Positions 6,143 to 45,459 of a stretch of DNA of 64,000 nt are shown here, in pieces (position 1 is the stretch's first letter; every line of letters starts with the position of its first letter). The DNA lies in contig JACROF010000003.1 of NCBI GenBank assembly GCA_016214555.1, forward strand, positions 930 through 64,929, given 5' to 3'. The stretch comes from Candidatus Levyibacteriota bacterium. GTDB taxonomy: Bacteria; Patescibacteriota; Microgenomatia; Levybacterales; UBA12049. The position numbers and the translations under genes are program-made. The notes beneath the pieces are model-generated. The model worked only from the letters and a program-made list of their open reading frames with translations. It did not search any database and was not told the DNA's origin.

Positions 6143-6241
6143 TAAGATTAATCAAAAAGATTTAGGCAGCAATACAATTTGGTTTGACTTATTGCTTGAA
6201 TATTGTAGTCACCATTATACAAGCACTGTCAAGTAGAGGTA

Positions 6242-7324: not shown

Positions 7325-7371
7325 GAGAGAATAAATTCAGTATAGCAAGGACTAGAAGATAACAAAAAAAA

Positions 7372-9150
7372 TCAATGGAGATTGCCAAAATACGACTCGA
7401 GAATTTTCTTAGCAATTGGTCCTGCTTCACTTGAGCCCTCACCTGATGATTCGTTGAGAACAGTAATAATAATTTGTGGGTCATAGGCAGGAGCATACAG
7501 CGTGATCCACGCATGAGGAAGTGTCTCCTCGGTACCATGCTGAGCTGTTCCCGTTTTGCATGCTATCGATATATGACGATAATCACTCAATGCGGCAGAA
7601 TTACTTGCTTGAGGATCTGGTAATATATTTTTCCCATCGATTCTTAATTCTGAATTCTTAATTCTGAATTGGAACAATGGCCATGCTGTTCCTCCTGTGT
7701 CGCATGCCCCAATCATGCCAGAACGAATAAGAGAAATATCCTCTTTTGATAAAGGCACTTTAGCAATAACTTCTTCGCGAGCGTTCTTCAAAAGATGAGG
7801 CTTATACAATTTTCCTCCATTGGCAATAGCTTGAGTCCATGCGTTAACCTGGAGAGGAGATGTTAATAAATACCCTTGCCCAATACCATAGATATAGGTG
7901 TCCCCTAAATACCACTCCTCACCTACATTTTTTTGCTTCCATTTTTCATCAGGCAAAACACCCGATGCCTCACCGGGAAGGTCTATACCAAGCTTTTTCC
8001 CAACCCCCATATTTTTGGAAGTTTCTACAATAGTTGACAAGCCAATTTTTGCTGCTAATTCATAGAAAAAAATATCATTGGACCTGGCAAGCGCTTTCAC
8101 TACATCTACCTCACCTTCTGTTCTACCATATTGGCTAAAATACCAATTTGAGTAGGAATATGGTCCAATAGTAATTTTTCCTTTATCAGTAACCTTATAA
8201 GACCCATCAATTTTTTTACTTTCCAGCGCTCCTGCTGCCATCACAATTTTAAATGTAGAACCCGGTGGATAGGTTCCTGAAATTGCACGGTCTAAGAGTG
8301 GCTGATTTTCTCCTGTAAGTATTGCTGACACTGTTGGATATGCCGTATTAGTAGCTTTATATGACTGAGTCAGTGTGAAAAGATTTGGATCAAATGATGG
8401 CTTGGACATCAGTGCTAATACCTCACCATTTGGAGTCGTCACAACAACCGCCCCTTTATGAACATCTTTCATCGCATCGTAAGCTGATTGCTGTAATCTT
8501 GCATCAAGAGTAAGCAGGAGGTCGTGACCTGGAGTTGGATCTGTCTGACCAAGTATCCTTACTTCCTTTCCTGATGCGTCCACTTCAACAAGTCGCTTCC
8601 CATTTATTCCCTTAAGAAATGGTTCATACTGATACTCAATTCCTGTCTTACCTATAAAATCAGTAATATCATAATCTTGATAAAGCGGAGAGTTCAATTG
8701 CTCTTTATCTACCTGCCCAACATATCCTAAAACATGTGCCATTGCATCTTTAAAAGGATACTGCCTCAAAGAATCAACAAACAATGACTTATCGCCTTTT
8801 GCTATTTTTTCAAGCGCATCTTCTTGCGTTAAAAGTTTTGTTTTCTCTCCGATCGTCTGACGAAATCCTGGAATATTATAGATAAGCGGAATCCCGTTTC
8901 TGTCAAAAATAACGCCTCTTGGGGCATAAATTATTGATGTCCTAATACGATTTGAGTCAGAGAGACCTCGATAAAAATCACCTCTTATAATCTGCAAAAA
9001 AACAATTCTAAAAAAAAGAATACCGCCAAAAAGAGCAACAAAAAGAATAAGAATTTGCGATCTCATACCACGAGAAATATTTTCAGAAAAGGTATGACGT
9101 TTGATTTTTTCTGTCCTGATTGCGTCTGGAAATGCTATACCATGCTTCAT
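7372..9150 (-). CDS. mrdA: Penicillin-binding protein 2 (peptidoglycan transpeptidase)
   Basis: N-terminal TM segment and an STFK active-site motif. Sits immediately downstream of mreBCD. Confidence 0.8.
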   Translation of the reverse strand: MKHGIAFPDAIRTEKIKRHTFSENISRGMRSQILILFVALFGGILFFRIVFLQIIRGDFYRGLSDSNRIRTSIIYAPRGVIFDRNGIPLIYNIPGFRQTIGEKTKLLTQEDALEKIAKGDKSLFVDSLRQYPFKDAMAHVLGYVGQVDKEQLNSPLYQDYDITDFIGKTGIEYQYEPFLKGINGKRLVEVDASGKEVRILGQTDPTPGHDLLLTLDARLQQSAYDAMKDVHKGAVVVTTPNGEVLALMSKPSFDPNLFTLTQSYKATNTAYPTVSAILTGENQPLLDRAISGTYPPGSTFKIVMAAGALESKKIDGSYKVTDKGKITIGPYSYSNWYFSQYGRTEGEVDVVKALARSNDIFFYELAAKIGLSTIVETSKNMGVGKKLGIDLPGEASGVLPDEKWKQKNVGEEWYLGDTYIYGIGQGYLLTSPLQVNAWTQAIANGGKLYKPHLLKNAREEVIAKVPLSKEDISLIRSGMIGACDTGGTAWPLFQFRIKNSELRIDGKNILPDPQASNSAALSDYRHISIACKTGTAQHGTEETLPHAWITLYAPAYDPQIIITVLNESSGEGSSEAGPIAKKILESYFGNLH

Positions 9151-18614: not shown

Positions 18615-18718
18615 CCTGCCCGCCAGATGCCGAGATAGCTCAGTGGTAGAGCAGTTGTTTTGTAAACATCAGGTCCGGGGTTCAAATCCCCGTCTCGGCT
18701 CCAGACATGGCAGGCGGG
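18615..18718 (+). other. Intervening element inside tRNA-Thr: 14-nt and 15-nt GC-rich complementary arms flanking a complete tRNA
   Basis: CCTGCCCGCCAGAT and GACATGGCAGGCGGG form a roughly 11-bp helix with one mismatch, abutting anticodon-loop positions 35 and 36. Confidence 0.55.
18629..18703 (+). tRNA. tRNA-Thr(UGU), complete copy nested inside the split tRNA-Thr
   Basis: Acceptor GCCGAGA/TCTCGGC, D arm identical to the outer gene, anticodon loop UUUGUAA, T arm CGGGG/CCCCG, CCA encoded. Confidence 0.75.
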
Positions 18719-18760
18719 TAAACATCAGGTCGTCGGTTCAAATCCGACAGTCGGCTCCAG

Positions 18761-18847
18761 GCTGGGGTGGCAGAGTAGCAATTGCACGTGGCTGTAGACC
18801 ACGCGGTCGAAAGGCCTCCGGGGGTGCAAGTCCCTCCTCCAGCACCA
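18761..18847 (+). tRNA. tRNA-Tyr(GUA), type II with a long variable arm
   Basis: Acceptor GCTGGGG/CTCCAGC, anticodon stem CGTGG/CCACG with loop CUGUAGA, variable-arm stem GGTC/GGCC, CCA encoded. The T loop is the non-canonical TGCAAGT. Confidence 0.7.
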
Positions 18848-19035
18848 CGTCAGATTTTTGATATCTGCTTTCGTTCCGATTTAGTCGGGACTTCAGCTTT
18901 CTATCAAATCTTCCTTGTCAAATTTCAAACAAATTTGATGTGCTCAAAATCCAAAGGATTTTGAAGAGGAGAAACCGACGATAGGTTGAAATCCGAAAAA
19001 AGTTCGGATGAAAACAAGAAGTCGAGCTTCGACGA

Positions 19036-19107
19036 GCCCAAATGGCTCAGTGGTAGAGCGAGTTCTTGGTAAGAACTAGGTCGCGGGTCCGATTCCCGCT
19101 TTGGGCT
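19036..19107 (+). tRNA. tRNA-Thr(GGU)
   Basis: Acceptor GCCCAAA/TTTGGGC, anticodon stem AGTTC/GAACT with loop UUGGUAA, T arm GCGGG-TCCGATT-CCCGC. Confidence 0.8.
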
Positions 19108-19115
19108 CAGAGATC

Positions 19116-19144
19116 TTTTATTTCTGCTTCAAATCGTGTATACT
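19116..19144 (+). promoter_or_regulatory. Candidate extended -10 promoter for rpmG
   Basis: TGTATACT (TGnTATAcT) at 19137..19144, with an AGGAG RBS at 19152..19156. Confidence 0.35.
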
Positions 19145-19163
19145 ATCGCTCTAGGAGTTTTTT

Positions 19164-19340
19164 ATGCCAAAAAAAGGAGAACATCGCATCATTATTGGAC
19201 TCGTTTGTTCGGTTTGCAAAAACCGCAATTACGTCTCGCAAAAAAACAAGCTTGAGACTCCAGACAAGCTAAAACTTAACAAATTCTGCAAACACTGTCA
19301 AAAGGTAACAGAGCACAAAGAAAACGAGAAACTCAAATAA
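19164..19340 (+). CDS. rpmG: Ribosomal protein L33 (58 aa; below the ORF-track length cutoff)
   Basis: The translation [58 protein letters not shown] has the L33 zinc-ribbon pattern. Confidence 0.85.
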
Positions 19341-19457
19341 GTATTTAGTATCTTGTATAAAGAATCAAGCATACTATACTCTTATATTTCCACCTCAAAT
19401 CTCATCATTCATTCCTTTATACTTAATACTAAATACTGTATACTTTATACCTGAATT

Positions 19458-19529
19458 AGGGGTGTAGTGAAATGGCTATCACAGCAGTCTCCAAAACTGC
19501 TTTTCACAGTTCGAATCTGTGCGCCCCTG
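19458..19529 (+). tRNA. tRNA-Trp(CCA)
   Basis: Acceptor AGGGGTG/CGCCCCT, anticodon stem GCAGT/ACTGC with loop CUCCAAA, T arm CACAG-TTCGAAT-CTGTG. Sits in the conserved rpmG-trnW-secE position. Confidence 0.8.
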
Positions 19530-19580
19530 CTACATTCAGTTCACTTCTCCACAATTATATAAACAAATTGTGGTTCGTTC

Positions 19581-24750: not shown

Positions 24751-26076
24751 ATGTCAGATCAGACAGGAGCCCTTCAGATTCCCGTTGTCGGAACCGGCAC
24801 TCTAGCAGTTCCACCGCAACCACAGGGATCAGCCAGCTCCGCCCTCATGCAGACGGGAAATACAGCAACAGAGCGAAAGCAGCTCATCTGCAAGGACATC
24901 CTCAGGGCATTAAGCCCCGAAAGATTCCAACAAGCCACGGTCGTTGCCCAAGCCGACTACCCCAATATGCTGGTAAACAGCCAGATCGGTATGGTATACG
25001 GCTCTGAAGCGATCGCCGCCATGAACGCACTCGTCAGTTCGATGCGCACCAGAGTCACTCCGGTAGAAATACCGCAGCTTGACAAGATGATGGCTGCGAT
25101 CAACGATGAGATGCGCAGCTTCCGCGGCCACTACGACACCAGCAAGGACCCCGAACTTCGCGAGAAATACGAAAAAGCGATGGGCGGGATCAAGAAGCTA
25201 TTCAACCGAGGCAAGACCTACATGGAAATGCTCCATGAAGATATGCAATCCTCGGTCGAAAGGCTCGATGGCATCAAGGCAGAGCTACTTGCTAAGCAAG
25301 CTCAGCTCATACGAAATGTCGGCCTCTACGACGAGCTGTATCTGGCAAACGAACAGGAAATCGTCAACGTCATCGAAGCCATCGCACGGATGGAGATGAT
25401 TTGCGATTTGGCAGCTGCAGAAGCAGCTGCAATCGTTGGCGACCCCAACGATCCCGTCAATCACGCCAAGTTCGAGCGGAAACGTTTCATTGCAATATTT
25501 GCCAACAACCTGACGCTCAGGCTCACCGAATTCAAAAACCGCCTATTCGCCGGCTATGCGATGTCACCACAGATCACTCAGTCTCGAGACATCGATACTG
25601 CGATGGCGATGAAACTTTATTCTGTCTGCGATACCACCATCCCTCTCATCGAGTCAACCATGCTTCGATGGCAGATGATGGTCCAGGCAGAACTCGCAGC
25701 CGAAGCCGCAAACGCAGTCGCAAGACTCACCAACGAGGTACTCGTCGCGAATTTCGAAGCCGGAGCGGATATCCTGCCTCGAGTCGCCCAGGCGATTCAA
25801 ACGCCGACGATAACCCCCGAGACCATTTTGGCACTCGGTACAAGTATCGAGAAGCAGACTCAAGGCATCATCGATGCCTACGCTGCCGGACGTGAGCGAC
25901 GCGCAGCAGTCGATGATGCGATCGTAACTACGTACCGTGTCATCCAAAATGCTACGGCCAAGGTGAGCGACGAAGTCGTTGATCAACTGCTTGCGCAAGC
26001 CAACGCACCGCTCCCAGCTGTCATCACTGCGAAGCTTCCCGAGCTTCCAGCAGGTATTGAATCTCAAGCTTCCTAG
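24751..26076 (+). CDS. TelA-like (toxic anion resistance / KlaB family) protein
   Basis: GC is about 55%, well above the window average. An N-terminal Q-x-G...LSS element and a central GLYDELYLANEQEI region resemble B. subtilis TelA (compare DMLDEMYEKNKDYY). Long helical architecture and a strong AAGGAG RBS. Confidence 0.45.
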   Translation: MSDQTGALQIPVVGTGTLAVPPQPQGSASSALMQTGNTATERKQLICKDILRALSPERFQQATVVAQADYPNMLVNSQIGMVYGSEAIAAMNALVSSMRTRVTPVEIPQLDKMMAAINDEMRSFRGHYDTSKDPELREKYEKAMGGIKKLFNRGKTYMEMLHEDMQSSVERLDGIKAELLAKQAQLIRNVGLYDELYLANEQEIVNVIEAIARMEMICDLAAAEAAAIVGDPNDPVNHAKFERKRFIAIFANNLTLRLTEFKNRLFAGYAMSPQITQSRDIDTAMAMKLYSVCDTTIPLIESTMLRWQMMVQAELAAEAANAVARLTNEVLVANFEAGADILPRVAQAIQTPTITPETILALGTSIEKQTQGIIDAYAAGRERRAAVDDAIVTTYRVIQNATAKVSDEVVDQLLAQANAPLPAVITAKLPELPAGIESQAS

Positions 26077-30320: not shown

Positions 30321-31205
30321 CTAATCAAGATTAAGTGTTTTTAGAAATGCCTTAAAATCTCCATTAATATCCGGATGCTCAAGCGCTAATTCTACAGCTG
30401 TCTTCATATACTCAAGCTTATTTCCTGTGTCATAATACTTACCATTCTCAATCTCAACAGCATAGACAGGAACCCCTGAGTCTTGCAGCTTGTTAATAGC
30501 ATCAACAAGCCAAATTTCTCCACCTTTCCCAGGCTCAAGTGACCTGAGCGCTCCAAAAAGTTCAGGAGGGACGATGTATGCTCCATGAGTTGCGATATTA
30601 GAAGGCGCCTCATCAGGCTCTGGTTTCTCAACAATACTTTTAATTTTATAAACATTTCCCTCGACAGGATCCAAATCAGCGATCCCATATCTCTTAAGAT
30701 CTTCTTTTTTATCAATTCTGACTCCCGATATAACAATTCCCCCGTATTTTTCATAGACATCAATCATCTGGGAAAGCCTGGGAGGGTTTGCGTAAATAAA
30801 TTCATCTCCCCATAAGACAGCAAAAGCTTCATTTTCAATAATTGGCTCTGCAGCAAGAACAGGAGTACCATTACCATAAGGCCCCTTCTGCCGTACATAA
30901 ATAAAATTAGCAAGATCTGCTATTTTTTTTGTCTCTTCAAGAAGCTTTTGCTTATTTCCCTGCTCTAAATTCTTGATAAGGTCCTGATTTGGTACATCAA
31001 AATGATCCTCAATTGCTCTTTTGAGAGCCCCTGTAACAATTACGATATCCTCAATACCGGAAGCTACAGCTTCCTCTACAACATATTGAATAACAGGCTT
31101 ATCTACAATAGGAAGCATTTCCTTAGGAAGAGCTTTTGTCTGAGGAAGAAATCTGGTCCCAAAACCAGCTGCGGGGATAACGGCTTTTCGTATCCTTTTT
31201 GCCAT
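30321..31205 (-). CDS. galU: UTP-glucose-1-phosphate uridylyltransferase
   Basis: KAVIPAAGFGTRFLP...LPKEMLPIVDKPVIQY. Confidence 0.85.
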   Translation of the reverse strand: MAKRIRKAVIPAAGFGTRFLPQTKALPKEMLPIVDKPVIQYVVEEAVASGIEDIVIVTGALKRAIEDHFDVPNQDLIKNLEQGNKQKLLEETKKIADLANFIYVRQKGPYGNGTPVLAAEPIIENEAFAVLWGDEFIYANPPRLSQMIDVYEKYGGIVISGVRIDKKEDLKRYGIADLDPVEGNVYKIKSIVEKPEPDEAPSNIATHGAYIVPPELFGALRSLEPGKGGEIWLVDAINKLQDSGVPVYAVEIENGKYYDTGNKLEYMKTAVELALEHPDINGDFKAFLKTLNLD

Positions 31206-31368: not shown

Positions 31369-31557
31369 TTGTTTATGACATCGCCAGTTTCTTTTCTTAC
31401 CCAAACATATGATGAGTTAAAAAAAGTCGTCTGGCCAACACGTCAGCAACTTATGAAATTAATGCTGATAGTTATGTTTGCAAGTCTTGTTGTAGGACTC
31501 TACATCGGTGGCATAGACTTTGTTCTTACTAAACTAACAGAATCGTTATTAAAATAA
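31369..31557 (+). CDS. secE: Preprotein translocase subunit SecE
   Basis: EL+KVVWPTRQ followed by a single TM segment. Confidence 0.8.
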   Translation: MFMTSPVSFLTQTYDELKKVVWPTRQQLMKLMLIVMFASLVVGLYIGGIDFVLTKLTESLLK

Positions 31558-31569
31558 CAATAGTAACTT

Positions 31570-32160
31570 ATGACACAAGCAACCGATTTACCAAACGGAC
31601 CATCTGAAGAAGAAATTAAAAAAGCATCATTATCTGAGGCTGCTAAATGGTACATTGTTCATACCTATGCTGGTCATGAAAATAAAGTAGCTCGCAATCT
31701 CAAACAACGTGTTGAGACGATGGGTTTTGAGACCCGCATCTTTGACATCATCGTTCCTACTCGCCAAACCATTAAAGTGCAAGGTGGAAAAAAAGAAGAA
31801 GTCAGTGAAAAAATCTTTCCAGGATATGTTCTTGTCAAAATGATTCTCGATGATGAATCATGGCTTCTTGTTAGAACAACGCAAGGAGTTACAGCATTTA
31901 TTGGTGCTGGCAATAAACCAACGCCAATTTCAGAGAAAGAAGTTGAGGCTATTCAACAGTTCATGACACAAGAAGAACCTCTGTACAAAACTTCATTCTC
32001 TCTTGGTGAAGCGGTCAAAATCGTTGATGGACCTTTCGCAGATTTTCTGGGTACTATTGACAGCATAGATGAGACTCGTGGTAAACTACGCGTCTTGGTA
32101 AGTATCTTCGGACGAGAAACGCCCGTTGAGCTTGATTTCCTGCAAGTACAAAAAATATAA
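31570..32160 (+). CDS. nusG: Transcription termination/antitermination factor NusG
   Basis: KWYIVHTYAGHENKV (NGN domain) and a C-terminal KOW domain (GEAVKIVDGPFADFLGTI). Confidence 0.85.
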   Translation: MTQATDLPNGPSEEEIKKASLSEAAKWYIVHTYAGHENKVARNLKQRVETMGFETRIFDIIVPTRQTIKVQGGKKEEVSEKIFPGYVLVKMILDDESWLLVRTTQGVTAFIGAGNKPTPISEKEVEAIQQFMTQEEPLYKTSFSLGEAVKIVDGPFADFLGTIDSIDETRGKLRVLVSIFGRETPVELDFLQVQKI

Positions 32161-32243
32161 GAAGGATGTAGAAGATAGTAAGTAGCTTTTAGTTACGTTT
32201 TAACTACACGCTATTGCCTACTTTACTACCTACTAAACAAAAT

Positions 32244-32666
32244 ATGGCTAAAAAAATTAAAACATTAATAAAGCTTAATATCCAAGCAGGTGCAGCGACT
32301 CCTGCACCACCTGTTGGACCAGCTCTTGGTCAACACGGACTTCCTATCATGGAATTTGTAAAGGCCTTCAATGACAAAACAGCAGATCAGAAAGGCAATC
32401 TTCTTCCTGTTGTTATTACTGTTTTTGAAGACCGAACCTTTACTTTTATTACCAAAAAGCCTCCTATGGCTGAAATGATCAAAAAGGCACTTGGACGAGG
32501 CGGGTCACAAAAGCCTGGAAAAGAAAAAGCAGGTTCTATCACCAAATCCCAAGCTGAGCAAATTGCTAAAGACAAAATGGAAGATCTTAATACCGATGAT
32601 CTTGACATGGCAACACGAATCGTCGCGGGTACAGCACGAAGTATGGGAGTGGAGGTTTCAAGCTAA
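32244..32666 (+). CDS. rplK: Ribosomal protein L11
   Basis: [38 protein letters not shown]. The start is trimmed to the canonical Met. Confidence 0.9.
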
Positions 32667-32718: not shown

Positions 32719-33543
32719 ATGGGAAAAATTAGAGTAAAAGCATTAGGAGACGAAGAGTTAGAGCTCAAACAGGCTGAGGAAGCTAAAGTTCGTAAGGAAG
32801 CTAAAAAGGCTGAAAAACAAACTGAAATTTCTACTGATCAAGTTATTGAAAAAGTTGAAGCAGCTTCAGTTGAAGAAACAAAACTTCAGAAAAAACAGAA
32901 AAAAGAAAAATTTGTTAAGACAAATAAAAAAATCCGTTCAAAAAGTTATATGACAAAAGTAGATCTCGTTGATAAAAATAAAAATTATTCTCTTTCAGAG
33001 GCTATTACTCTCTTGCCTCAGTTAAAAAGGGCGAAATTTGATGAGACAGTCGAGCTTCATATTACGACAGTTGAAACAGGCGTCTCAGGCAGCGTTAGCC
33101 TTCCCCATGGAACTGGAAAACAAATGAGAATTGCTATCGCAAATGGTGCTGATCAAAAAACTCTTGATGAACTTCTTGCAAAAATTGAGGCAGGAAATAT
33201 CGATTTTGATATCCTTATTGCTACCCCTGACAGTATGCCAAAATTGGCAAAAGCAGCACGAGTTCTTGGACCTCGAGGACTTATGCCAAATCCAAAAAAT
33301 GGCACTGTTACTCCAAAACCTGAAGAAGTTGCTAAAAAGTATGAAGGTGGACAAATTAATTTCAAAACAGAGTCTAAATTCCCTCTTCTTCACATCTCTG
33401 TGGGAAAAGTCTCTTTTGGTGAAGATAAAATTCGCGAGAATGTTAAAACAGTTCTTAATGCAATTGATAGTAAAAAAATTAGAAGCATCACTCTCAAATC
33501 AACCATGTCCCCAGCAATTCGTTTAGATATTGCCTCCTTATAA
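32719..33543 (+). CDS. rplA: Ribosomal protein L1 with a roughly 70-aa K/E-rich N-terminal extension
   Basis: The canonical L1 core begins near residue 78 (KVD...YSLSEAITLL...KFDETVEL). The upstream in-frame K/E-rich stretch has no stop codon. Confidence 0.8.
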   Translation: MGKIRVKALGDEELELKQAEEAKVRKEAKKAEKQTEISTDQVIEKVEAASVEETKLQKKQKKEKFVKTNKKIRSKSYMTKVDLVDKNKNYSLSEAITLLPQLKRAKFDETVELHITTVETGVSGSVSLPHGTGKQMRIAIANGADQKTLDELLAKIEAGNIDFDILIATPDSMPKLAKAARVLGPRGLMPNPKNGTVTPKPEEVAKKYEGGQINFKTESKFPLLHISVGKVSFGEDKIRENVKTVLNAIDSKKIRSITLKSTMSPAIRLDIASL

Positions 33544-33651
33544 GTCCTGTTTACCCCGCGAAGCTTTAGCGAAGTAGGGCAATTCACCTCGACCTCGCCT
33601 CACTCTAACGCTTAAATTGACGACGGAGTAAACCTACCCTAGAATAAAGTT

Positions 33652-35076
33652 ATGCCTGAAAATGCTGAAGTAAATCCCGTTGTTGAACCAAAAGCTGAAT
33701 TTGACGTAGGCTTCTTTACCATAAATTTTCTCTCTACAGACCCTCATGGCTTTGAGGTTCAGACAAGACACAGCCTTCCCCGCCGTGACAGAGATCCTGT
33801 GACAGGATTGCCTGCCACTCCTCTTGCACTCAACCAAGAACAAAGAGGAGACCTCCGACGAGGCATGGGAACAGAGGCATTCTTTGCTCTTCCTGGAGAT
33901 TTCCCTCATGAAAAAAGGCCAGATGTTAGAAGACTTTTTAGCCTTATAGATCAAACAGCAACGCTTAAGGAGCAAGCTGGAACAACTGAACAACTGCAAG
34001 AAAAATTAATGGAGATGAGAATGCTTCGTAAAGAACTAAGGCCGTTATTTAAAGAATATAATCTTCGAGATAGATTAGGTCTTAAAGTTGGGACTCGAAA
34101 TGTGCAGAAAGTTGGAATACGTAAAATTGAACGGGCTGGAAATAAGCTTCTTATTGATACAAGACCTATTAGTTATCCTGTCTATGCCGTGGCAAGTAGC
34201 CCCGACGACACTGAAGAATCTCTGGATTTAGGCGCTGTTACAGGCACAGCAGGTGTTCTTATTACAGCAGATAACAAAATGATTCTTCAATACAGAAGCA
34301 AAAAAAATAGTCCTTATGGTGATATGCCAGGGGCGAGTTTTGCTGGCATGCTTGATGCTCGTTTCAAAAGAATAAAACTAGAAAATGGCAAAGAACTCAA
34401 AACAGGTGTTCTTCAAGATGTAGATGATACATATATCAAAGAAAGTTCAGCTGAGGAACGATTTCAGGAAATTGCTATCGTTGGTGAAGACGTAACAGAT
34501 TTTAGGATTATCGGCGAAGCTCGTGATCATGTCCGTGAACATGACGAATTTCTTTTGTTGGCAAAAACATCTCTTACAGCGCGTGAGGTGGCAAAAAGAA
34601 CTGAAAACGCTCCCCGAAGTAGCAATGCACGGAAATTAAATGGCCAGGGAGACTTTCATTTTGAAGAAAATTTTCTTGTGATAGATGCCACACCTGAGGC
34701 TATTGAGACCCTTGTAACGCAAGTCAAATGTCCTCGCCCACCTACCCATGATGCAGCTTTTATAGCTGCAGGCTATAACATGATGCTTGAAAGAACACAG
34801 GAAGAAGGCGGTGGGCTGAAAGCAGCTAATGAGTGGCTTGAAAGGATGCAAGAGGCAACTCGTCAAAACTACGAGGATATGAATAAAATAGTCAAGGAGT
34901 TCTATGAACAACATCCTGAAAAGCTTGAAGATAATAAGCCTGGCAAACCCAAACGAAATCCTAATGCATATGAACCCTACTACTTTCCAACCGAACAAGG
35001 GCTACCAGATCTCATGAATGAACTTTATAGAACTGGACTTATGACCAGACCCGAGACAGATTCCTCCCCAAGCTAG
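33652..35076 (+). CDS. Hypothetical protein (474 aa) inserted between rplA and rplJ
   Basis: Long ORF at about 47% GC with no recognisable motif. Confidence 0.5.
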   Translation: MPENAEVNPVVEPKAEFDVGFFTINFLSTDPHGFEVQTRHSLPRRDRDPVTGLPATPLALNQEQRGDLRRGMGTEAFFALPGDFPHEKRPDVRRLFSLIDQTATLKEQAGTTEQLQEKLMEMRMLRKELRPLFKEYNLRDRLGLKVGTRNVQKVGIRKIERAGNKLLIDTRPISYPVYAVASSPDDTEESLDLGAVTGTAGVLITADNKMILQYRSKKNSPYGDMPGASFAGMLDARFKRIKLENGKELKTGVLQDVDDTYIKESSAEERFQEIAIVGEDVTDFRIIGEARDHVREHDEFLLLAKTSLTAREVAKRTENAPRSSNARKLNGQGDFHFEENFLVIDATPEAIETLVTQVKCPRPPTHDAAFIAAGYNMMLERTQEEGGGLKAANEWLERMQEATRQNYEDMNKIVKEFYEQHPEKLEDNKPGKPKRNPNAYEPYYFPTEQGLPDLMNELYRTGLMTRPETDSSPS

Positions 35077-35142
35077 CCTTGACTCTCACGAGTAATCGTA
35101 CTATACTCACCCACAAGAATAAGCTGCCGAACTGGCAGCTTT

Positions 35143-36684
35143 TTGCATATTATGTCATCAAAAATAGAACTCGCCTCGTCTCCTCACCTTCCGCCTGAGA
35201 TGCAATCAGGGCAAAGTTATGACGGAAATATTATTCCTCGTAGATTTTTACCGCTTGATCCCAATGGTATGACTGGTCGAGATTTACAAATATATGCACA
35301 AGGATTCAAGGCTGGAGATGGTCAAAGACCCTCACCTACTCTTGGAGAGAACGACATACCACTCTCCACACACACAAGGCGTCAATTTGGATATGAAGCA
35401 GCGCTTGGACTGACATTACTTGCTGGAGCTGGAGGTTTATTAGCAAGATCGCTCTATGATACTCTCACAAATGTCAGCGCTCCTGATTTTGCTCAAAAAC
35501 TATTGGATAAAAAAGCTGACACAACTGCCCTAAATGGTGAGACAGTCTATCATGATATCCTTCCGGGAATGGTTGGGACTCACGGCTTCTCAGTACTATT
35601 TAATCCTCTTGAGCTTTCCGCATTCTCAGACAGAGCAGGAAAAAATTATAACTGCGTTATCTCGACAACAACCCTTGGTGAGGATGGTAGGGAAAAAGTT
35701 GAACCCTGCATCGTCTACAACAACGGAAATTCTCTTAAAATCCCTTACAGTTTTCAGATCTCTCTTGAGGGACAACAACGCGCATCATACATACCAATCG
35801 ACTGGTATCCAATCGACGAGACATCTTCAACTGTTGTCACTTTTCATACCGCACAAGCTGGTCAACAGCCTGATGAGGAACACGCAAGAAGATACACTTT
35901 TATGCCAGACGACTACACAAAAATCGAATGGCCCACATCAAATACAGTTGTCTCAATCATAAAAGAAAACCATGCCAGAATGCCGCAGGAATTAGAAAGT
36001 TCACTGCAAAATTTTTTCTCAAGAGTTGGAGCAGACTACACCCCACAAATATATCTACGCGGTAATGAATGGTCAAAAAATGGAAAACTCTATACACTAA
36101 CTGATAATAGTTCACGCCTTGTGCTTGGAGAATCATTGGGATACCTAGATGAAAAAGAGAGATACTATCATCTCAATGCAGCATGGGGAGAAGTTATCTT
36201 TGACAAAATGCTTGCATCATTCCCCAACACTTCCACCAGTGTTATTATAAGCACTTTTATAAAAACACACCGCGACGTATTAAGAATGAAAGATGAATAT
36301 GAGACTAATGAAATAGGAAGTCACGGAGCAGCAACGTATACTGAAGCACAGAATCCATATTTTAAGCTTTTTTTAGATCTTGATAAAATATTTAAACCTC
36401 AACGAAATAAAAATGGTGATCGCTACTATTTTACTGATCCAAGAGAAGAGTTTGGGAGAATACTTGCCATAATGATGAATAATCCAAGCGAACTTATTTT
36501 TCTTAAAGATCAATCTTCTCGTGAGCCTGCAGAATGCATAAAAAAACTCTGTGGGGCAATAAGGGCTGCTATTAACGAAGAACTGGTCGCTAACAAAGAA
36601 GACTCACTTGAGATTCTTAACAATCTGTTTCCTGATGCAAGCTCATCTTCAACATTTCTCCAATGGTTTTTCCAAACACAATAA
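35143..36684 (+). CDS. Hypothetical protein (513 aa) inserted between rplA and rplJ
   Basis: Long ORF with no recognisable motif. Confidence 0.5.
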   Translation: MHIMSSKIELASSPHLPPEMQSGQSYDGNIIPRRFLPLDPNGMTGRDLQIYAQGFKAGDGQRPSPTLGENDIPLSTHTRRQFGYEAALGLTLLAGAGGLLARSLYDTLTNVSAPDFAQKLLDKKADTTALNGETVYHDILPGMVGTHGFSVLFNPLELSAFSDRAGKNYNCVISTTTLGEDGREKVEPCIVYNNGNSLKIPYSFQISLEGQQRASYIPIDWYPIDETSSTVVTFHTAQAGQQPDEEHARRYTFMPDDYTKIEWPTSNTVVSIIKENHARMPQELESSLQNFFSRVGADYTPQIYLRGNEWSKNGKLYTLTDNSSRLVLGESLGYLDEKERYYHLNAAWGEVIFDKMLASFPNTSTSVIISTFIKTHRDVLRMKDEYETNEIGSHGAATYTEAQNPYFKLFLDLDKIFKPQRNKNGDRYYFTDPREEFGRILAIMMNNPSELIFLKDQSSREPAECIKKLCGAIRAAINEELVANKEDSLEILNNLFPDASSSSTFLQWFFQTQ

Positions 36685-36880
36685 TCATTCATGAGTTGAT
36701 CTTTTCTATCTATTCTGCTATGATACATAAGTCCAAAGACAGCAGGCCCAAAAGCATATAGCCTATGGCTAATAGCAAATGGTTAAACATTCCTGCCGAG
36801 GGCTTCACTAGGATTTAGTAATTAGGTAATAGCGCTTAGTTCAAAAACTACTCCCTACACACTACTACCTACATCCTTTA

Positions 36881-36902
36881 AAAGCACCTCGAGTGCTTTT
36901 TT
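36881..36902 (+). terminator. Hairpin plus T-run 12 nt upstream of rplJ; terminator for the inserted ORFs and/or an rplJL leader attenuator
   Basis: Stem AAAGCAC/GTGCTTT with a CTCGA loop, followed by T6. Confidence 0.5.
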
Positions 36903-36914
36903 ATTAGGAAATAT

Positions 36915-37478
36915 ATGGCTAACAAAACAGCATCAATGAAATACCAGCCAAAGCCTCACCAAGGCAAGGCTCGAAAAGAACAGCTTGTAGCAGAACTTTC
37001 AGAAAAGGTTCAAAAATCACAGGCTTTTGTTTTCGTAAATTACCAAGGCCTTACTCATCTTCAATTAGAGGCTATCAAAAAGACATCAAAAAAATTAGAT
37101 GCAGATTTTGTTGCTGTCAAAAATACCCTTATGCTTCGAGCTCTCTCTGAATACAACCTTTCAGATGAAGACAAGAAAAATTTTGAACAACCAACAGCTA
37201 CTCTTTTTATCTATGGAGATATCGTTGAGCCACTCAAAAACCTCGCAAAAACTGCAAAAGAACTTGATTTGCCAAAAATTAAATTTGGCATTATTGAAAA
37301 AAATCCTATTACAGCAGAGCAGGTTCTCAAATTGGCAACGCTTCCACCACTTCCTCAACTTCGAGCACAACTTTTGGGCATGATGATGTCTCCTATTCAA
37401 GGTCTACATCGTGCACTTTCATGGAATATGCAAACACTTGTTATGACACTTAATGCAATCGCTCAAAAAAAAGCTTAA
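36915..37478 (+). CDS. rplJ: Ribosomal protein L10
   Basis: Typical L10 sequence and its position upstream of rplL. Confidence 0.85.
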   Translation: MANKTASMKYQPKPHQGKARKEQLVAELSEKVQKSQAFVFVNYQGLTHLQLEAIKKTSKKLDADFVAVKNTLMLRALSEYNLSDEDKKNFEQPTATLFIYGDIVEPLKNLAKTAKELDLPKIKFGIIEKNPITAEQVLKLATLPPLPQLRAQLLGMMMSPIQGLHRALSWNMQTLVMTLNAIAQKKA

Positions 37479-37496: not shown

Positions 37497-37892
37497 ATGG
37501 CAAAACTAACAAATGATGAATTAATGAAAGCAATTGAAGAGATGTCTGTTCTCGAACTTTCTGAGCTTGTTAAAGCTCTTGAAGAAAAATTCGGAGTTTC
37601 TGCAGCAGCTATGGCTGTAGCAGCAGCTCCAGCATCAGGCGCAGCAGCAAGTGCTGATGCAGCCCCAGCTGAAGAACAAACAGTCTTCAATGTTATTTTG
37701 GCTAGCGCTGGCGCTAACAAGATCGCTGTTATTAAGGCTATTCGAGAACTCGTTCCAACACTTGGTCTTAAGGAAGCAAAAGATCTTGCTGACACAGCAC
37801 CAAAAGAAGTTATGACACAAGTCAACAAAAAAACTGCTGATGAGGCAAAAGAAAAACTCACCGCAGCAGGAGCAACTGTTGAATTGAAGTAA
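37497..37892 (+). CDS. rplL: Ribosomal protein L7/L12
   Basis: N-terminal dimerisation helix, an Ala-rich hinge, and a C-terminal domain ending [17 protein letters not shown]. Confidence 0.9.
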
Positions 37893-37894
37893 CA

Positions 37895-37946
37895 AAAAAC
37901 CTCGTCCTCTCTAAAAATAATTTATTTTGCGGCCGAGGTTTTTTTG
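37895..37946 (+). terminator. Terminator-like hairpin after rplL
   Basis: AAAAACCTCG ... CGAGGTTTTTTT enclosing a long loop. Confidence 0.45.
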
Positions 37947-38769
37947 TGGTCATAACGTATACCTTAGGCTGATTTAATAATCTAATCATTTATCCAATAT
38001 TTCTTATTTTAATAAAAAAGATGATCATAAGATTTTAGGCAAGCTCAAAAGACTTGTAAAGAATTGATACTCTAAAAAGACATAAAACTCTCCCAAAAAG
38101 GAAAATACTACACCAATAAGAGGCCACATTGCATAAGAGTCGCTTCGAAAACGCGAAATATAGCCCAATTCCCTCTTTTGAAACAGTGTTTTGACAATTA
38201 TTTTGATTCTGATGTCATATGATGTAGTCATTTTTCGACTTTTTGAACGATTCAAAACATATATACAATTTTTTCACGTCGGATAATATTCTTGTAAGAA
38301 TAAGACCGCGACTTGATCGAACAATTCCCGAATGAGTATAAATATTGTTCTATAGAATAGAACTCATGAAAATTCCAAAAATCCAAAAAAATGATTTTTG
38401 TACCAGCTGCCAAAAAATCCCAATACTTTCATAAAGTTTTGGAAAATTAAGACAAAAATTTCAAAAAAAGAAAAGTTTTCCTGTGGATATCCCCAAATAA
38501 CTCTCTTACTCCAAGCTCCTCCCCTATAGCCTTATAATGGGAGACTATAGGTAAAACAAGAGTTAATAAAATGGCTATAGTAAATTACTGTAGGACTATT
38601 GTCCAATTTCTCCCTTCCAATATAGGATAAGACCCTTTAGATACCTTCTAGGTCATCCTACGCCCTTAAAATATTATTTTGAGGCTAAGAGCTTTTAGTA
38701 TTAATGTTTCTAAAGATATCTTGACCAATAAAAAATTGTGATATATACTACATGTAATACGCGCAATTT

Positions 38770-38796
38770 AGCAGCTCCAAAGAGCTGCTTTTTTTG
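38770..38796 (+). terminator. Orphan rho-independent terminator
   Basis: AGCAGCTC-CAAA-GAGCTGCT followed by T7. A TTGACC-17-TATACT promoter lies at 38720..38748. Confidence 0.55.
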
Positions 38797-39016
38797 TATG
38801 AAAAGCCTTAACTACTCTGATAAAACACATAAAATAAAAATATGAAGATACAAAACGTAACATCCATAAGAAGTGTCAGGTATTTTCGATATAAAGATGT
38901 ACCAAAACTTTTTCTTATTAACCTTTGTGAAAGACCAATAGCAACTCTAAATCTAATAATTTTTCTCATTTGGGTACTTTTGTCAATTATAACCAGCTAA
39001 ACCACCAAACTCCCCC

Positions 39017-39077
39017 TTGACACTAATGTTCTAGTTTGTTACTTTAGTGATAGGTAATTATTACAATGATTACCTAT
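39017..39077 (+). promoter_or_regulatory. Promoter (TTGACA-17-TACTTT) plus a 9-bp-arm inverted repeat operator upstream of the excisionase-type HTH gene
   Basis: ATAGGTAAT-N10-ATTACCTAT at 39050..39077, 18 nt before the ATG. Confidence 0.45.
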
Positions 39078-39094
39078 GAGTTACTCTCCAGGCT

Positions 39095-39310
39095 ATGGCT
39101 GATCAAAAGATATCAATCAACGACCTACCAGATCTACTTACTGTACGAGAAGTTGCAGAAGTTTTACGCGTCTCTCCTCTTACCATCAAACGCTGGGGGA
39201 AAAGGGGTAAATTACCAGCAATTCGTATCAACAGCAGGGGGGACAGGCGCTACAAAAAAGAAGCAGTTTTTTACCTCCTAGGTATTCAGGAAAAAAGTGG
39301 GACTATCTAA
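39095..39310 (+). CDS. Excisionase/MerR-superfamily helix-turn-helix DNA-binding protein
   Basis: LLTVREVAEVLRVSPLTIKRWGKRGKLPAIRI matches the excisionase-family HTH pattern. Confidence 0.6.
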   Translation: MADQKISINDLPDLLTVREVAEVLRVSPLTIKRWGKRGKLPAIRINSRGDRRYKKEAVFYLLGIQEKSGTI

Positions 39311-43863: not shown

Positions 43864-44358
43864 TCAGCAATGAATCACAACGACACTCTCAGTGGTGAGT
43901 AGCCTGATAGGCTCCCGAAGCTGATGAGCTGCCGTGGTAACGATGAACGTCACCTGACGAACATGCTTTGTTACCCGAATCTCAGGCAAAACACGCTCGT
44001 TTTCCAAAAGCAAGACGTCTTCAGTGACCGTCACGGTGAACACCGCGACCTCATGGTTGCTCTCGACTCGAATCGGAATTCCGTTGAACACCCTGGGTTC
44101 TCGCGGTCGAGCATAGCCCGTATCAGGAATGATACCAGAGCCGTGCTTGTCAATTACGACGAAGACCGATTGGTCTCGAACATTCCAAACGCCAATCGCG
44201 TGCAGCTGATCCCTAGGGACCGTGACTAGATAGATTTCCTCGTTAGCATTGTTTGGATCATCGATGGGAATCATCGCTCTCGGCGATCCTTCGCCTTGAG
44301 CAAAAAAGATTCCAATCGAGACTCCGTTATCAGAACGATTACTAAACCCGGAGGACAT
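43864..44358 (-). CDS. Hypothetical protein in the GC-rich segment
   Basis: ORF followed on the minus strand by a roughly 10-bp hairpin at about 43811..43838. Confidence 0.35.
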   Translation of the reverse strand: MSSGFSNRSDNGVSIGIFFAQGEGSPRAMIPIDDPNNANEEIYLVTVPRDQLHAIGVWNVRDQSVFVVIDKHGSGIIPDTGYARPREPRVFNGIPIRVESNHEVAVFTVTVTEDVLLLENERVLPEIRVTKHVRQVTFIVTTAAHQLREPIRLLTTESVVVIHC

Positions 44359-44604
44359 ACCAGTGCTCCCTTCGTTGCTACAAACAAGGTGGCTAACGCC
44401 CTTTTGGACAGATCAAAAGGCCATTAGCCATATATTCAGAACTATTAATGTGCAATTACAGCACAAGCTGTAAATAGGTCGTAAGTATAGCATATTTTAT
44501 ATCTAAAATCAACTATAGGATGTTTGCCGAGAGGCATTTGAGCTCACTTCCAAAGGGAAATGAAGTCCAAATGACCTCCCGGCTTGCCTCATTTGAGGCT
44601 GCTA

Positions 44605-45459
44605 CTAAAAGGTAGCATGAGAAAAAAATGCGCCATCAGCGCCATCAAGATTGTTGTGAGCGTGAGTTCGTCGCAACTTTAACACTTTGCCTACATAGGC
44701 GATTTGTTGCCGCACGAGCAAAAAGGTATGTAGGTCCTTACAAGAACTCAGACCTTTCTGTGCAGCCGCACTGAAGACCCTAAGATCTGCGGTGGTGCGA
44801 CCTCTCAAGCAAAGCTTTTCCTGATCGCTCAGCTCAGGAAGACGCCCTCCCTTCAGGTGGTAAAGGAAAGCCTGTGCTCCAAGACTTGAGGCATACACGA
44901 TCGTATTCGATCGTTGAGGCTGATCCACCACACCATCAGCAATCAACTCGCCAATGAGGTCGTTGGTTGTGAGGCCAAGGTACGAACGCGCATTGGCCTC
45001 AGAGCCCAAGATAGCACAAAGTCGGGAATTCCGACCTTCAATACCTTCCAGGCTCTCGCTCTGGAGAAGACGAACTATCTCCCCCGGATACGAAATGAGG
45101 TTGCAAAAACCAAGACTATAGCTACCAAGGTCTCCAAGGGAGACCTGAGAGCATCGATCCGGGCTGCAAAGAGCAAAACGATGTGTTCCCTTTTGAGGAA
45201 CGTATGTCGGCGAACATGGTGCACTTGCCGACGATTGCTTCCCCAACGCTGCGCTATTTTGGAAGCACAAAGCTGCGCCCCCAGATTTTTTCACGTCAAC
45301 TATGACAACCGGACTTCGACGAGGATTTGACACCTCCCATACCGAAAGCCCGTTGAGTGTTTCATGGTGTTTTGCCTCCCCTGATGCGAACCGAATGTCT
45401 ACTCCGGGTACCAAACAGTTCATTTTTCCACCTTTCAGGACGGATAAGCCTCCCGTCAA
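44605..45459 (-). CDS. Hypothetical protein in the GC-rich segment
   Basis: 284-aa ORF at about 55% GC with no recognisable motif. Confidence 0.35.
   Translation of the reverse strand: MTGGLSVLKGGKMNCLVPGVDIRFASGEAKHHETLNGLSVWEVSNPRRSPVVIVDVKKSGGAALCFQNSAALGKQSSASAPCSPTYVPQKGTHRFALCSPDRCSQVSLGDLGSYSLGFCNLISYPGEIVRLLQSESLEGIEGRNSRLCAILGSEANARSYLGLTTNDLIGELIADGVVDQPQRSNTIVYASSLGAQAFLYHLKGGRLPELSDQEKLCLRGRTTADLRVFSAAAQKGLSSCKDLHTFLLVRQQIAYVGKVLKLRRTHAHNNLDGADGAFFSHATF

Follow-up and report, generated by a model that had tools for sequence, protein, structure and literature searches.

The stretch of DNA analysed here (the window, 64,000 nucleotides of a Candidatus Levyibacteriota genome) contains a cluster of transcription and ribosomal protein genes in which two large open reading frames lie between the genes for ribosomal proteins L1 and L10. 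What are these two genes, how did they come to occupy this position, and do they disturb the regulation of the L10 and L12 genes that follow them? On the plus strand the gene order is secE, nusG, rplK (L11), rplA (L1), ORF474, ORF513, rplJ (L10) and rplL. The interval between rplA and rplJ is termed the slot, and the genes in and around it are the following:

32719..33543, plus strand: rplA, ribosomal protein L1 (Pfam Ribosomal_L1, E = 8.9e-35, residues 103-265), the left conserved flank of the slot
33652..35076, plus strand: ORF474, 474 amino acids, a predicted NUDT22-like two-domain Nudix hydrolase in a form that lacks a HAD domain
35152 (ATG) or 35143 (TTG)..36684, plus strand: ORF513, 510 amino acids from the ATG or 513 from the TTG, an orphan
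36915..37478, plus strand: rplJ (Pfam Ribosomal_L10, E = 3.6e-21), right conserved flank of the slot
37497..37892, plus strand: rplL (Pfam Ribosomal_L12 and L12_N), also part of the right conserved flank

The slot is probably the border between two units of transcription and regulation, rplKA and rplJL, rather than the interior of an operon, and this border would have become a hypervariable site for accessory genes in this Candidatus Levybacteria clade (Patescibacteria/CPR). Its semi-conserved resident would be a NUDT22-like Nudix gene that has its own promoter and descends from a fusion with a HAD-IIB sugar phosphatase gene. Elsewhere in the slot, genes would be replaced through recombination between the strongly conserved ribosomal protein genes on either side, with ORF513 filling the variable part in the studied genome. 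The rplJL unit would retain an extended -10 promoter and a leader with an attenuator of the B. subtilis type, which would insulate L10(L12)4 autoregulation from the inserted genes.

Both reading frames, which an earlier note on this DNA had pointed out, are real and lie at 33652-35076 and 35152-36684. Their GC content is 42.3% (ORF474) and 40.1–40.2% (ORF513), not the approximately 47% given in that note. Both follow the coding pattern GC1 > GC2 > GC3, with GC3 of 0.29–0.30 and synonymous-codon scores inside the native range of the window (for ORF513, GC3 is 0.30 and the score 0.114). If stops are estimated at about 6% of random codons at 40% GC, the chance of some 510 open codons is approximately 1e-14, and the lengths of these frames are therefore not products of chance. 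Neither protein has a significant match in Pfam, NCBIfam, PHROGs or PADLOC. The earlier description of both as unknown genes without recognisable domains thus holds for sequence searches and fits ORF513 completely, but it does not hold for the fold of ORF474, which in the model is clearly that of a NUDT22-like Nudix protein. The GC content rises locally to 0.46 over 33500-33999. A truly atypical gene, available for comparison within the window, lies at 24751-26076 and has a GC3 of 0.61.

The question of regulation turns on the 230 nt between ORF513 and rplJ. The hairpin and T-run reported before rplJ are present at 36880-36902, with the T-run ending 12 nt before the ATG, but they are not the only signals there, as the spacer also contains a promoter and a full-length match to the L10 leader:

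36696..36724, plus strand: putative rplJL promoter, -35 TTGATC, 17 nt, extended -10 TG-c-TATGAT (promoter scan, TG flagged)
36715..36911, plus strand: L10 leader of the RF00557 type (Rfam scan, 36.1 bits, E = 0.0037, full-length model)
36880..36902, plus strand: hairpin AAAAGCAC-CUCGA-GUGCUUUU followed by UU, which forms the 3′ stem in the alignment to RF00557

An AGGAAA motif resembling a Shine-Dalgarno sequence follows at 36906-36911, shortly before the rplJ ATG at 36915. The inserted genes end before the conserved rplJL promoter, and the suggestion that the insertion sits in or competes with the L10 leader is not supported. The promoter motif (TTGAC..TGCTATGATA / TGCTATCATA) is conserved in the related loci L001, L002, L003, L009, L029 and L031, with L002 keeping only the -10 element and no TTGAC-type -35. 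The RF00557 match is placed upstream of rplJ in nine of nine loci, comprising the window and eight relatives, and the homologous leaders of these relatives score 29.6–44.8 bits. Against the RF00557 gathering score of 44 bits, the window's own leader falls below, L031 scores 41, and L029, at 44.8, reaches it.

Within the leader, a putative L10(L12)4-binding stem (AAGACAGCAGG...CCTGCCGAGG, approximately 36736-36801; AAGACAG...CCGAGG) contains two base pairs with compensatory changes among six sequences. In the minimum-energy fold, GAGGGCUUC (GAGG) pairs with the 5′ half of the terminator, which would be an alternative antiterminator pairing. The hairpin and a run of six to seven U are kept, with changes in the stem, in L001, L002, L003, L009, L011, L029 and L031. 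Together, the conserved hairpin and this fold point to terminator and antiterminator alternatives in the leader, with the hairpin at 36880-36902 as its intrinsic terminator, acting by a presumed attenuation mechanism.

In B. subtilis, rplJL is transcribed from an extended -10 promoter of its own and preceded by an attenuating leader (PMC4538822). The leader in the window resembles that one in its own extended -10 promoter, in a length of approximately 185–200 nt, and in the order of its elements, with an L10-binding stem first, a mutually exclusive antiterminator-like pairing next and an intrinsic terminator immediately ahead of rplJ. It differs from the Rfam type in its score of 36.1 bits versus 44, in a 29-nt expansion of the binding-stem loop and in a 53-nt insertion before the terminator, and both binding and attenuation are predicted here. 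Because promoter and leader are conserved in every relative examined, rplJL appears still to be an autonomous, autoregulated unit in which L10(L12)4 autoregulation would be intact. Their conservation downstream of the inserted genes further suggests that the insertion lies at a transcription-unit boundary, as in B. subtilis. CPR/Patescibacteria would thus share the autoregulatory L10 leader, with its attenuation-type architecture, that Firmicutes are known to have, and the leader would stay intact even with foreign genes lodged alongside.

Upstream of rplJL, signals are also found around the two inserted genes:

33617..33645, plus strand: candidate sigma-70-like promoter of ORF474 (TTGACG, 17 nt, TAGAAT; promoter scan)
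35079..35107, plus strand: putative promoter-like site upstream of ORF513 (TTGACT, 17 nt, TATACT), from a consensus scan only
35121..35146, plus strand: hairpin AAGCTGCC-GAACT-GGCAGCTT followed by TTTTT

The -10 element of ORF474 ends 6 nt upstream of the ATG, so its mRNA would be leaderless or nearly so. A similar -35/-10 pair, read by eye, ends 6–9 nt upstream of the start codon in all six of the Nudix-gene junctions examined, and the remainder of the spacers between rplA and the Nudix gene is unconserved among them. The segment 35077-35160 folds with -19 kcal/mol (z = -2.5), and its hairpin at 35121-35146 probably serves ORF474 as an intrinsic terminator, perhaps a leaky one, or would alternatively be the 5′ stem-loop of an ORF513 transcript. 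The promoters, leaderless starts and terminators proposed at this locus derive from consensus matches or covariation.

ORF474 could be placed by its structure. Its AlphaFold2 model (pLDDT 88.6, pTM 0.88) has the alpha/beta/alpha Nudix fold, and its best six Foldseek matches in the PDB are all human NUDT22, a UDP-glucose/UDP-galactose hydrolase (PDB 5LOR, 5LOU, 5LF9; E = 2e-10 to 6e-9, probability 1.0). The target-normalised TM scores to these entries are 0.61–0.66, with approximately 380 aligned columns across both NUDT22 domains. Almost all of the 50 listed matches are Nudix-fold proteins, and the neighbours after NUDT22 include NUDT12, NudC and RppH. By modelled fold, therefore, ORF474 is a NUDT22-like Nudix hydrolase, and the model also shows an insertion of three helices at residues 62-141 and further helices extending the C-terminus (364-460). 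It differs from NUDT22 in having a sequence identity of only 14–15%, in being some 170 residues longer and bacterial, in having relatives with a fused HAD-IIB phosphatase, and in that its activity is a prediction.

Sequence profiles miss this family. Pfam PF00293 (NUDIX) matches neither ORF474 nor any of the 28 family members found as its homologs, and a profile search against PDB sequences matched only the HAD domain and no NUDT22 or other Nudix sequence. The canonical Nudix box GX5EX7REUXEEXGU is absent from ORF474, which has the degenerate EERFQEIAI where distant relatives have KEAGEELGV; in its clade, Gln replaces the first Glu of the EE pair and Ala replaces Gly. In ORF474 the G-rich loop and the helix lie far apart, with a long insertion between them. 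Across the 28 sequences E269, E273, E339 and a PPTH motif are invariant, and of the box residues only E269 and E273 are. The missing canonical box does not exclude a NUDT22-like function, because NUDT22 itself has no conventional Nudix box (PMC5688067), although with so degenerate a box ORF474 could be inactive or perform other chemistry.

In several relatives (P0002-4, P0019-21, P0025 and L011) a HAD-IIB, Cof-type sugar phosphatase is fused to the Nudix module. ORF474 stops before this module and contains none of its motifs (DxDG motif I and the rest), so that it is a HAD-less form of an ancestral Nudix-HAD fusion; in L001 a remnant of HAD motif I persists in non-coding DNA. Fold similarity at 14–15% identity, together with the domain fusion, suggests that the substrate is most likely a nucleotide-sugar such as UDP-glucose, split into NMP and sugar-1-phosphate, and in the fused relatives the phosphatase would dephosphorylate the sugar phosphate that the Nudix domain releases. 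These organisms are generally thought to be limited in nucleotide biosynthesis. This rare bacterial family, often with a fused sugar phosphatase, would offer a candidate enzyme, open to assay, for the turnover of nucleotide-sugars or the salvage of pyrimidines.

The slot was compared in about a dozen related genomes, mostly short contigs that provide about eleven distinct loci. The position of rplA is the same in L001-L004, L009, L011 and L028-L031, and the interval between rplA and rplJ has at least 7 different gene contents among these roughly eleven loci. Every ORF474 homolog with at least 54% identity and a readable context immediately precedes rplJ, and wherever enough sequence is available ahead of the homolog, it is seen to lie in the rplA-rplJ interval. 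ORF474 is thus widespread in the lineage in the same slot and has a metabolic identity recognisable from its NUDT22-like fold, whereas ORF513 is unique to the studied genome. The earlier note had held that a widespread insertion of recognisable housekeeping function would speak against its reading, and this applies to ORF474, at the level of fold, and not to ORF513.

The variable part of the slot has sharp borders. L029 and L031 share 87–92% DNA identity up to a point 20 nt short of the slot ORF, and this identity resumes 9 nt past its end; between these boundaries there is no similarity, the two slot proteins (655 and 576 amino acids, respectively) being unrelated. The L029 slot ORF is also an orphan, the other slot occupants have no Pfam domain, and intact orphan ORFs just as long stand in this position in other genomes. 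When the identities of the Nudix and HAD modules are compared, the modules prove to be mosaic between genomes. This mosaicism and the unrelated cassettes between nearly identical flanks form a pattern that suggests that recombination rather than vertical divergence drives the turnover of the slot. The orphan slot ORFs may instead reflect extreme divergence of one ancestral gene rather than cassette replacement.

The interpretation of the slot as a border must be weighed against a single ribosomal protein operon, in which both genes would be co-transcribed with rplKA and rplJL and would perturb L10/L12 autoregulation, the leader being displaced or reduced. All of the genes are on the same strand, the gap between rplA and the Nudix gene is just 38–40 nt in relatives, and a scan of the plus strand found no terminator-like site after rplA or after ORF513, so transcription may run on from rplKA into ORF474, and from ORF513 into the L10 leader, which would partly couple the units. 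Such a transcript, however, would still carry the leader and stay under L10 control. A full promoter, L10 leader and attenuator are conserved between the slot and rplJ whatever fills it, and ORF474 has its own conserved promoter and a terminator-like hairpin behind it, making the single operon unlikely. Recent horizontal insertion of both ORFs by a mobile element or genomic islet is very unlikely. It would agree with the orphan status of ORF513, the differences in the slot between genomes and the GC of 0.46 at 33500-33999, but GC3 and codon usage are native in both ORFs, unlike in the gene at 24751-26076, and ORF474 has long been resident in the slot throughout the clade. Within 33544-36914 no integrase, transposase, tRNA or repeats flanking ORF474 and ORF513 were found, nor any match to phage or defence families (PHROGs, PADLOC), and with these hallmarks absent and the composition native, a classification as a mobile element or genomic island is not supported.

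Could the position of ORF474 instead reflect a role in translation? In this alternative the enzyme would act on RNA or the translation apparatus, for example by removing UDP-glucose-type or NAD-type 5′ caps. Its structural neighbours NUDT12, NudC and RppH are RNA decapping or deNADding enzymes, its place between the ribosomal protein operons is conserved, and NUDT22 has been proposed, as a hypothesis only, to be a UDP-glucose-RNA decapping enzyme (PMC11253889). Yet synteny within one clade can be plain common descent, distant family members are found in unrelated, non-translational gene contexts, and the recurrent HAD-IIB fusion points to small-molecule sugar-phosphate chemistry, so that this role is distinctly unlikely. 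Equally concerned with function is the possibility that ORF513 is a decaying remnant or a spurious long frame. ORF513 has no homolog anywhere searched, no confident structure and no Shine-Dalgarno sequence, but most genes in the window also lack the latter, a 510-codon frame at 40% GC is vastly improbable by chance, its base and synonymous codon usage fits native genes, and equally long intact orphans occupy the slot in other genomes. Nor is it a degraded HAD domain, a candidate rejected because hhalign against the HAD profile gave a probability of 0.1% and tblastn found no HAD remnant at 35077-36914. A non-functional ORF513 is therefore highly improbable, and ORF513 is taken to be a real, compositionally native protein gene at a border between two transcription units.

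ORF513 is a strict orphan, unique to the studied genome. It matches itself alone among 5.8 billion (5.8e9) clustered proteins and in an exhaustive phmmer (HMMER) scan of 1.84e9 representatives; scans of metagenome and viral contigs found no match besides itself, and there is none among PDB sequences. Its AlphaFold2 single-sequence model (pLDDT 33) is unusable. The earlier statement that no signal peptide is present is true of ORF513, yet residues 83-101 (from the ATG) form a weakly hydrophobic segment (Kyte-Doolittle 1.47, below the usual transmembrane thresholds), and a membrane anchor is possible. A strain-specific membrane-anchored or surface protein is our best guess, and a tentative one.

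This guess can be carried further, to a reading that is rather doubtful, in which the rplKA|rplJL boundary is a dedicated diversity locus. The highly expressed, conserved ribosomal genes would provide the arms for recombination and perhaps also growth-coupled read-through, and every lineage would place there a large membrane-anchored orphan of its own (ORF513, the 655-residue protein of L029, the 576-residue protein of L031). With such orphans these putative episymbionts could attach to hosts in a strain-specific manner or evade phages, and UDP-sugars produced by the neighbouring GalU would be recycled by the conserved NUDT22-like Nudix(-HAD) enzyme.

Hotspots of horizontal gene transfer between core genes, without mobile-element hallmarks, have been described (Oliveira et al. 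2017, PMC5635113), and the slot shares with them conserved core-gene borders, rapid turnover, the lack of a recognisable mobile element and signs that favour recombination, namely mosaic modules and sharp replacement borders. It differs in that it belongs to a small CPR genome and falls within the secE-nusG-rplKAJL cluster, and in a cargo of mostly orphan ORFs with native codon usage instead of recognisable accessory functions, as seen in a sample of about a dozen metagenomic loci rather than a formal pan-genome analysis.

In M. tuberculosis, rplK-rplA (which we take to be Rv0640-Rv0641) and rplJ-rplL (Rv0651-Rv0652) are presumably about nine unrelated genes apart, including mmaA1-4; a literature search for this arrangement found nothing. 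If this is right, the boundary is interrupted in other phyla too, there with unrelated cargo (mycolic-acid methyltransferases). In Levybacteria, a highly conserved bacterial gene neighbourhood would host a fast-turnover slot for orphan genes in small, streamlined genomes, and with primers in the conserved rplA and rplJ it would be a compact, PCR-addressable locus for strain-level accessory diversity in these uncultured organisms. One of these conserved flanks has a feature of its own: the rplA product carries an N-terminal extension of approximately 85–100 amino acids that is rich in Lys and Glu.

In this Levybacterial stretch, the genes from secE to rplL are encoded on the plus strand, and the two open reading frames that the earlier note placed between rplA and rplJ, here termed ORF474 and ORF513, are real:

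31369-31557, plus strand, secE
31570-32160, plus strand, nusG
32214-32666, plus strand, rplK (L11)
32719-33543, plus strand, rplA (L1)
33652-35076, plus strand, ORF474 (474 aa)
35143 (TTG start) to 36684, plus strand, ORF513 (513 aa; 510 aa with the ATG start, 35152, of the deposited annotation)
36915-37478, plus strand, rplJ (L10)
37497-37892, plus strand, rplL (L7/L12)

The database copies of the two inserted genes are HZC02_01640 and HZC02_01645. Their GC contents are 42.3% (ORF474) and 40.1% (ORF513) rather than the 47% or so first estimated, and in both GC3 (0.29-0.30) and synonymous-codon score they resemble the native genes of the window. By contrast, a TelA-like (toxic anion resistance) gene at 24751-26076 (plus strand) has a GC content of 54%, a GC3 of 0.61 and a negative codon-usage score, and is probably foreign in origin. 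Two adjacent ORFs at 43864-45459 (minus strand; 164 and 284 aa, GC about 51%) also have atypical codon usage and contain no Pfam domain. No integrase, tRNA or flanking repeat is found at the rplA-rplJ interval; candidate flanking repeats or att sites proved to be short chance matches, and a phage or defence-system origin of the inserted genes found no support in database searches.

Comparison with related loci (designated by L numbers) indicates that this interval, termed the slot, holds different cargo in different relatives. The left flank is conserved (a divergent GalU-like gene, secE, nusG, rplK and rplA), as is the right flank (the L10 leader, rplJ and rplL). Between these flanks, the following contents were observed:

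L001 and L002: Nudix gene alone
L024 and L025: Nudix gene directly upstream of rplJ (contigs end before rplA)
L003/L004: S8 peptidase and Nudix
L009, and L026 (cut within the HAD domain): Nudix-HAD fusion and a reverse-strand 239-aa ORF
L011: Nudix-HAD fusion and ORFs of 379 and 184 aa with N-terminal hydrophobic segments
Window: Nudix (ORF474) and ORF513
L028/L029: a single 655-aa ORF
L030/L031: a single 576-aa ORF

The DNA of L029 and L031 is 87-92% identical until 20 nt before the ATG of the slot ORF and again from 9 nt past its stop codon. Between these replacement boundaries the DNA shares nothing, and the 655-aa and 576-aa ORFs (L029:4832-6826 and L031:4745-6522) are unrelated by BLASTP. 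The slot genes have the native GC3 of each host. None of the occupants other than the Nudix and peptidase genes contains a Pfam domain, and a homolog search found the L029 slot protein to be a strict orphan too. In several occupants a single hydrophobic segment precedes a domain of 320-420 aa, a weak hint that they may be surface proteins. Hotspots that lie between core genes, lack mobile elements and diversify by homologous recombination in their flanks are a known category (PMC5635113). The slot is consistent with this category, here at the boundary between the rplKA and rplJL transcription units of a CPR lineage. Literature searches returned nothing on a possible M. tuberculosis precedent, in which unrelated genes would separate rplK-rplA from rplJ-rplL, or on Levybacteria synteny.

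In the conserved spacer 3′ of rplA in L029 (4626-4850) and L031 (4538-4795), a promoter-like pair (TTGACA / TATTCT) occurs together with a hairpin, GCCTTTG...CAAAGGC, that runs into T6. A structured RNA in this 225-nt region was considered and rejected (no excess folding energy, z = 0.06; no Rfam match), and the region probably contains just the rplKA terminator. The L011 contig (CAYRJZ010000004.1) encodes GalU, secE, nusG, L11, L1, L10 and L12 in the same order as the window and at 63-89% identity, and the label of its MAG, “uncultured Gammaproteobacteria bacterium”, is probably wrong.

The region upstream of rplJ is richer than the lone hairpin and T-run originally described. The ORF513-rplJ spacer is 230 nt long and contains a promoter and a full-length match to the Rfam L10 leader family RF00557 at 36715-36911 (36.1 bits, E = 0.0037 in a permissive scan, below the gathering score of 44). 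The hairpin plus T-run (36880-36902) corresponds to the terminator stem at the 3′ end of this model. Eight related loci also have an RF00557 match immediately 5′ of rplJ (29.6-44.8 bits), and the L029 leader attains the gathering score. Alignments reveal three elements kept upstream of rplJ. The promoter, which was also flagged by a promoter scan, consists of a TTGAC-type -35 and an extended -10, TG-n-TATGAT or TG-n-TATCAT (36696-36724 in the window). The L10-binding element, AAGACAG...CCGAGG, shows two compensatory base-pair changes in its stem among six sequences. The terminator hairpin and its U6-7 run immediately precede the start codon, and substitutions in the hairpin stem keep pairing. 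When the window leader is folded to minimum energy, the conserved GAGG pairs with the 5′ half of the terminator stem, an antiterminator-like alternative.

This arrangement is like that of B. subtilis rplJL. There, experiments showed a sigma-A promoter dedicated to rplJL, with an extended -10, and a 213-nt leader that can fold into anti-antiterminator, antiterminator or terminator structures; L10(L12)4 promotes termination (PMC4538822). By its sequence, the window leader would likewise bind L10(L12)4 and attenuate transcription. The inserted genes lie upstream of this regulatory leader, not within it, and with promoter and leader intact, rplJL is probably still autonomous. The proposal that the insertion interferes with L10 regulation finds no support: the slot lies where two operons meet, and rplJL retains its promoter and a predicted autoregulatory attenuator.

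Homologs of ORF474 that are at least 54% identical and have readable context (the set of L001, L002, L003/L004, L009 and L025) all lie directly upstream of rplJ, and between rplA and rplJ where the upstream sequence suffices. Two homologs of about 40% identity (L011 and L024) likewise occupy the position upstream of rplJ, and the remaining distant homologs are found in unrelated contexts. At 6/6 rplA-side junctions, read by eye, a sigma-70-like -35/-10 pair stops 6-9 nt short of the ATG, and the spacers are otherwise unconserved. This suggests that ORF474-type genes may produce a leaderless transcript from a dedicated promoter. The L024 homolog (76-1021) is split over two reading frames, through either a frameshift (pseudogene) or an error (contig coverage is about 2), and its neighboring rplJ is the closest to that of the window (L10 84% identical).

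Neither inserted protein has a significant match in Pfam, NCBIfam, PHROGs or PADLOC, so the earlier description of them as lacking recognizable domains holds for these databases; ORF474 is nonetheless recognizable by fold. A homolog search with it gave 28 matches, comprising its own database copy and 27 homologs that come mostly from Patescibacteria metagenomes. The family is rare: across 185,579 species, each represented by one genome, a scan recovered only 14 loci. Supplied with the family alignment, AlphaFold2 produced a confident model (pLDDT 88.6, pTM 0.88), for which the top six Foldseek matches in the PDB are human NUDT22 (E = 2e-10 to 6e-9, probability 1.0), aligned over about 380 columns with a TM to target of 0.61-0.66. 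These are followed by NUDT17, NUDT12 and many further Nudix enzymes. ORF474 is thus predicted to be a lineage-conserved NUDT22-like Nudix hydrolase, a relationship that went undetected by Pfam and PDB-sequence profile searches. The Nudix box is near-canonical in distant family members (KEAGEELGV) and reads EERFQEIAI in the ORF474 clade, with E269 and E273 unchanged in all family members. NUDT22, too, is atypical in having no conventional Nudix box (PMC5688067), and it converts UDP-glucose to UMP and glucose-1-phosphate (PMC10101856). Weak, below-threshold Pfam matches of the family's helical insertion to MREG and Phage_Mu_Gam were judged to be spurious coiled-coil hits.

Many family members, including the L011 protein and the close homologs P0002-P0004, carry a C-terminal HAD-IIB / Cof-type sugar-phosphatase domain. 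Such a fusion fits a two-step conversion of NDP-sugar to sugar-phosphate and then to free sugar. ORF474 has no HAD domain, and tblastn found no remnant downstream of it. In L001, the non-coding DNA that runs from the Nudix gene to the rplJ promoter (L001:9357-9643) retains a HAD motif-I remnant (HMYLFDVDGPIVEP...; HMYLFDVDGPIVEPNTETVTHPK matches a HAD-domain profile, E = 1e-5), which is evidence that the domain was deleted there. This indicates that the fusion is ancestral, with repeated loss of HAD. In the L011 protein (5950-8289, 779 aa), the HAD domain is 71% identical to those of P0002/P0004 and the Nudix part only 44%, while P0003 shows the reverse pattern (Nudix part 68-71%, HAD 34-36%). 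This discordance implies recombination at the level of modules.

Upstream of secE, and divergent from it, is a GalU-like UTP-glucose-1-phosphate uridylyltransferase gene (30321-31205, minus strand; TIGR01099 score 309 bits, slightly short of the cutoff). It is found there both in the window and in all related loci that extend far enough. UDP-glucose, the NUDT22 substrate, is the GalU product, and the GalU-like gene is about 2.4 kb from the NUDT22-like gene.

Its length, codon-position GC and codon usage mark ORF513 as a genuine coding sequence. It matches itself alone in a word-indexed search of 5.8 billion proteins, in an exhaustive phmmer comparison with 1.84 billion cluster representatives, and in scans of metagenome and viral contigs, and it has no match among PDB sequences. 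Its single-sequence AlphaFold2 model has a pLDDT of 33. Descent from a diverged or split-off HAD domain was rejected, as BLASTP against the long homologs, tblastn and hhalign (probability 0.1%) were all empty, and kinship to other slot occupants, window ORFs or ORFs of the related loci was rejected on equally empty phmmer --max and BLASTP searches. ORF513 is a genome-specific orphan in a fast-turnover slot. Residues 83-101 (AALGLTLLAGAGGLLARSL) are moderately hydrophobic (Kyte-Doolittle 1.47), with arginines just before them, and could form a membrane anchor, at values below the usual thresholds. Two features precede the gene:

35079-35107, promoter-like site upstream of ORF513 (promoter scan)
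35121-35146, hairpin plus T-run upstream of ORF513 (z = -2.5)

The hairpin is most simply read as terminating ORF474 transcription.

Nudix enzymes, L10 leaders and recombination hotspots are all known kinds. What is new is the location of the slot at the rplKA/rplJL boundary, its orphan-rich cargo in a streamlined genome, and a Nudix family that escapes sequence profiles.

Other features of the ribosomal-protein region were also observed. The N-terminus of rplA (32719-33020) encodes a Lys/Glu-rich extension of about 85-100 aa, and the Pfam L1 domain begins at residue 103. This extension is conserved in relatives and is longer in L029 (3675-4625) and L031 (3596-4537), which encode proteins of 313-316 aa. 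The rpoB and rpoC genes are absent directly after rplL (37893-39310), where an AT-rich stretch (38000-39000, about 30% GC) contains a strong terminator-like hairpin (38770-38789). It is followed by a small HTH_17/MerR-type gene (39095-39310), and a similar HTH gene is found downstream of rplL in L001. Finally, four clustered tRNA genes (Thr-TGT, Tyr-GTA, Thr-GGT and Trp-CCA; 18629-19530) are located some 12 kb before the secE-nusG-rplKA block, on its upstream side.
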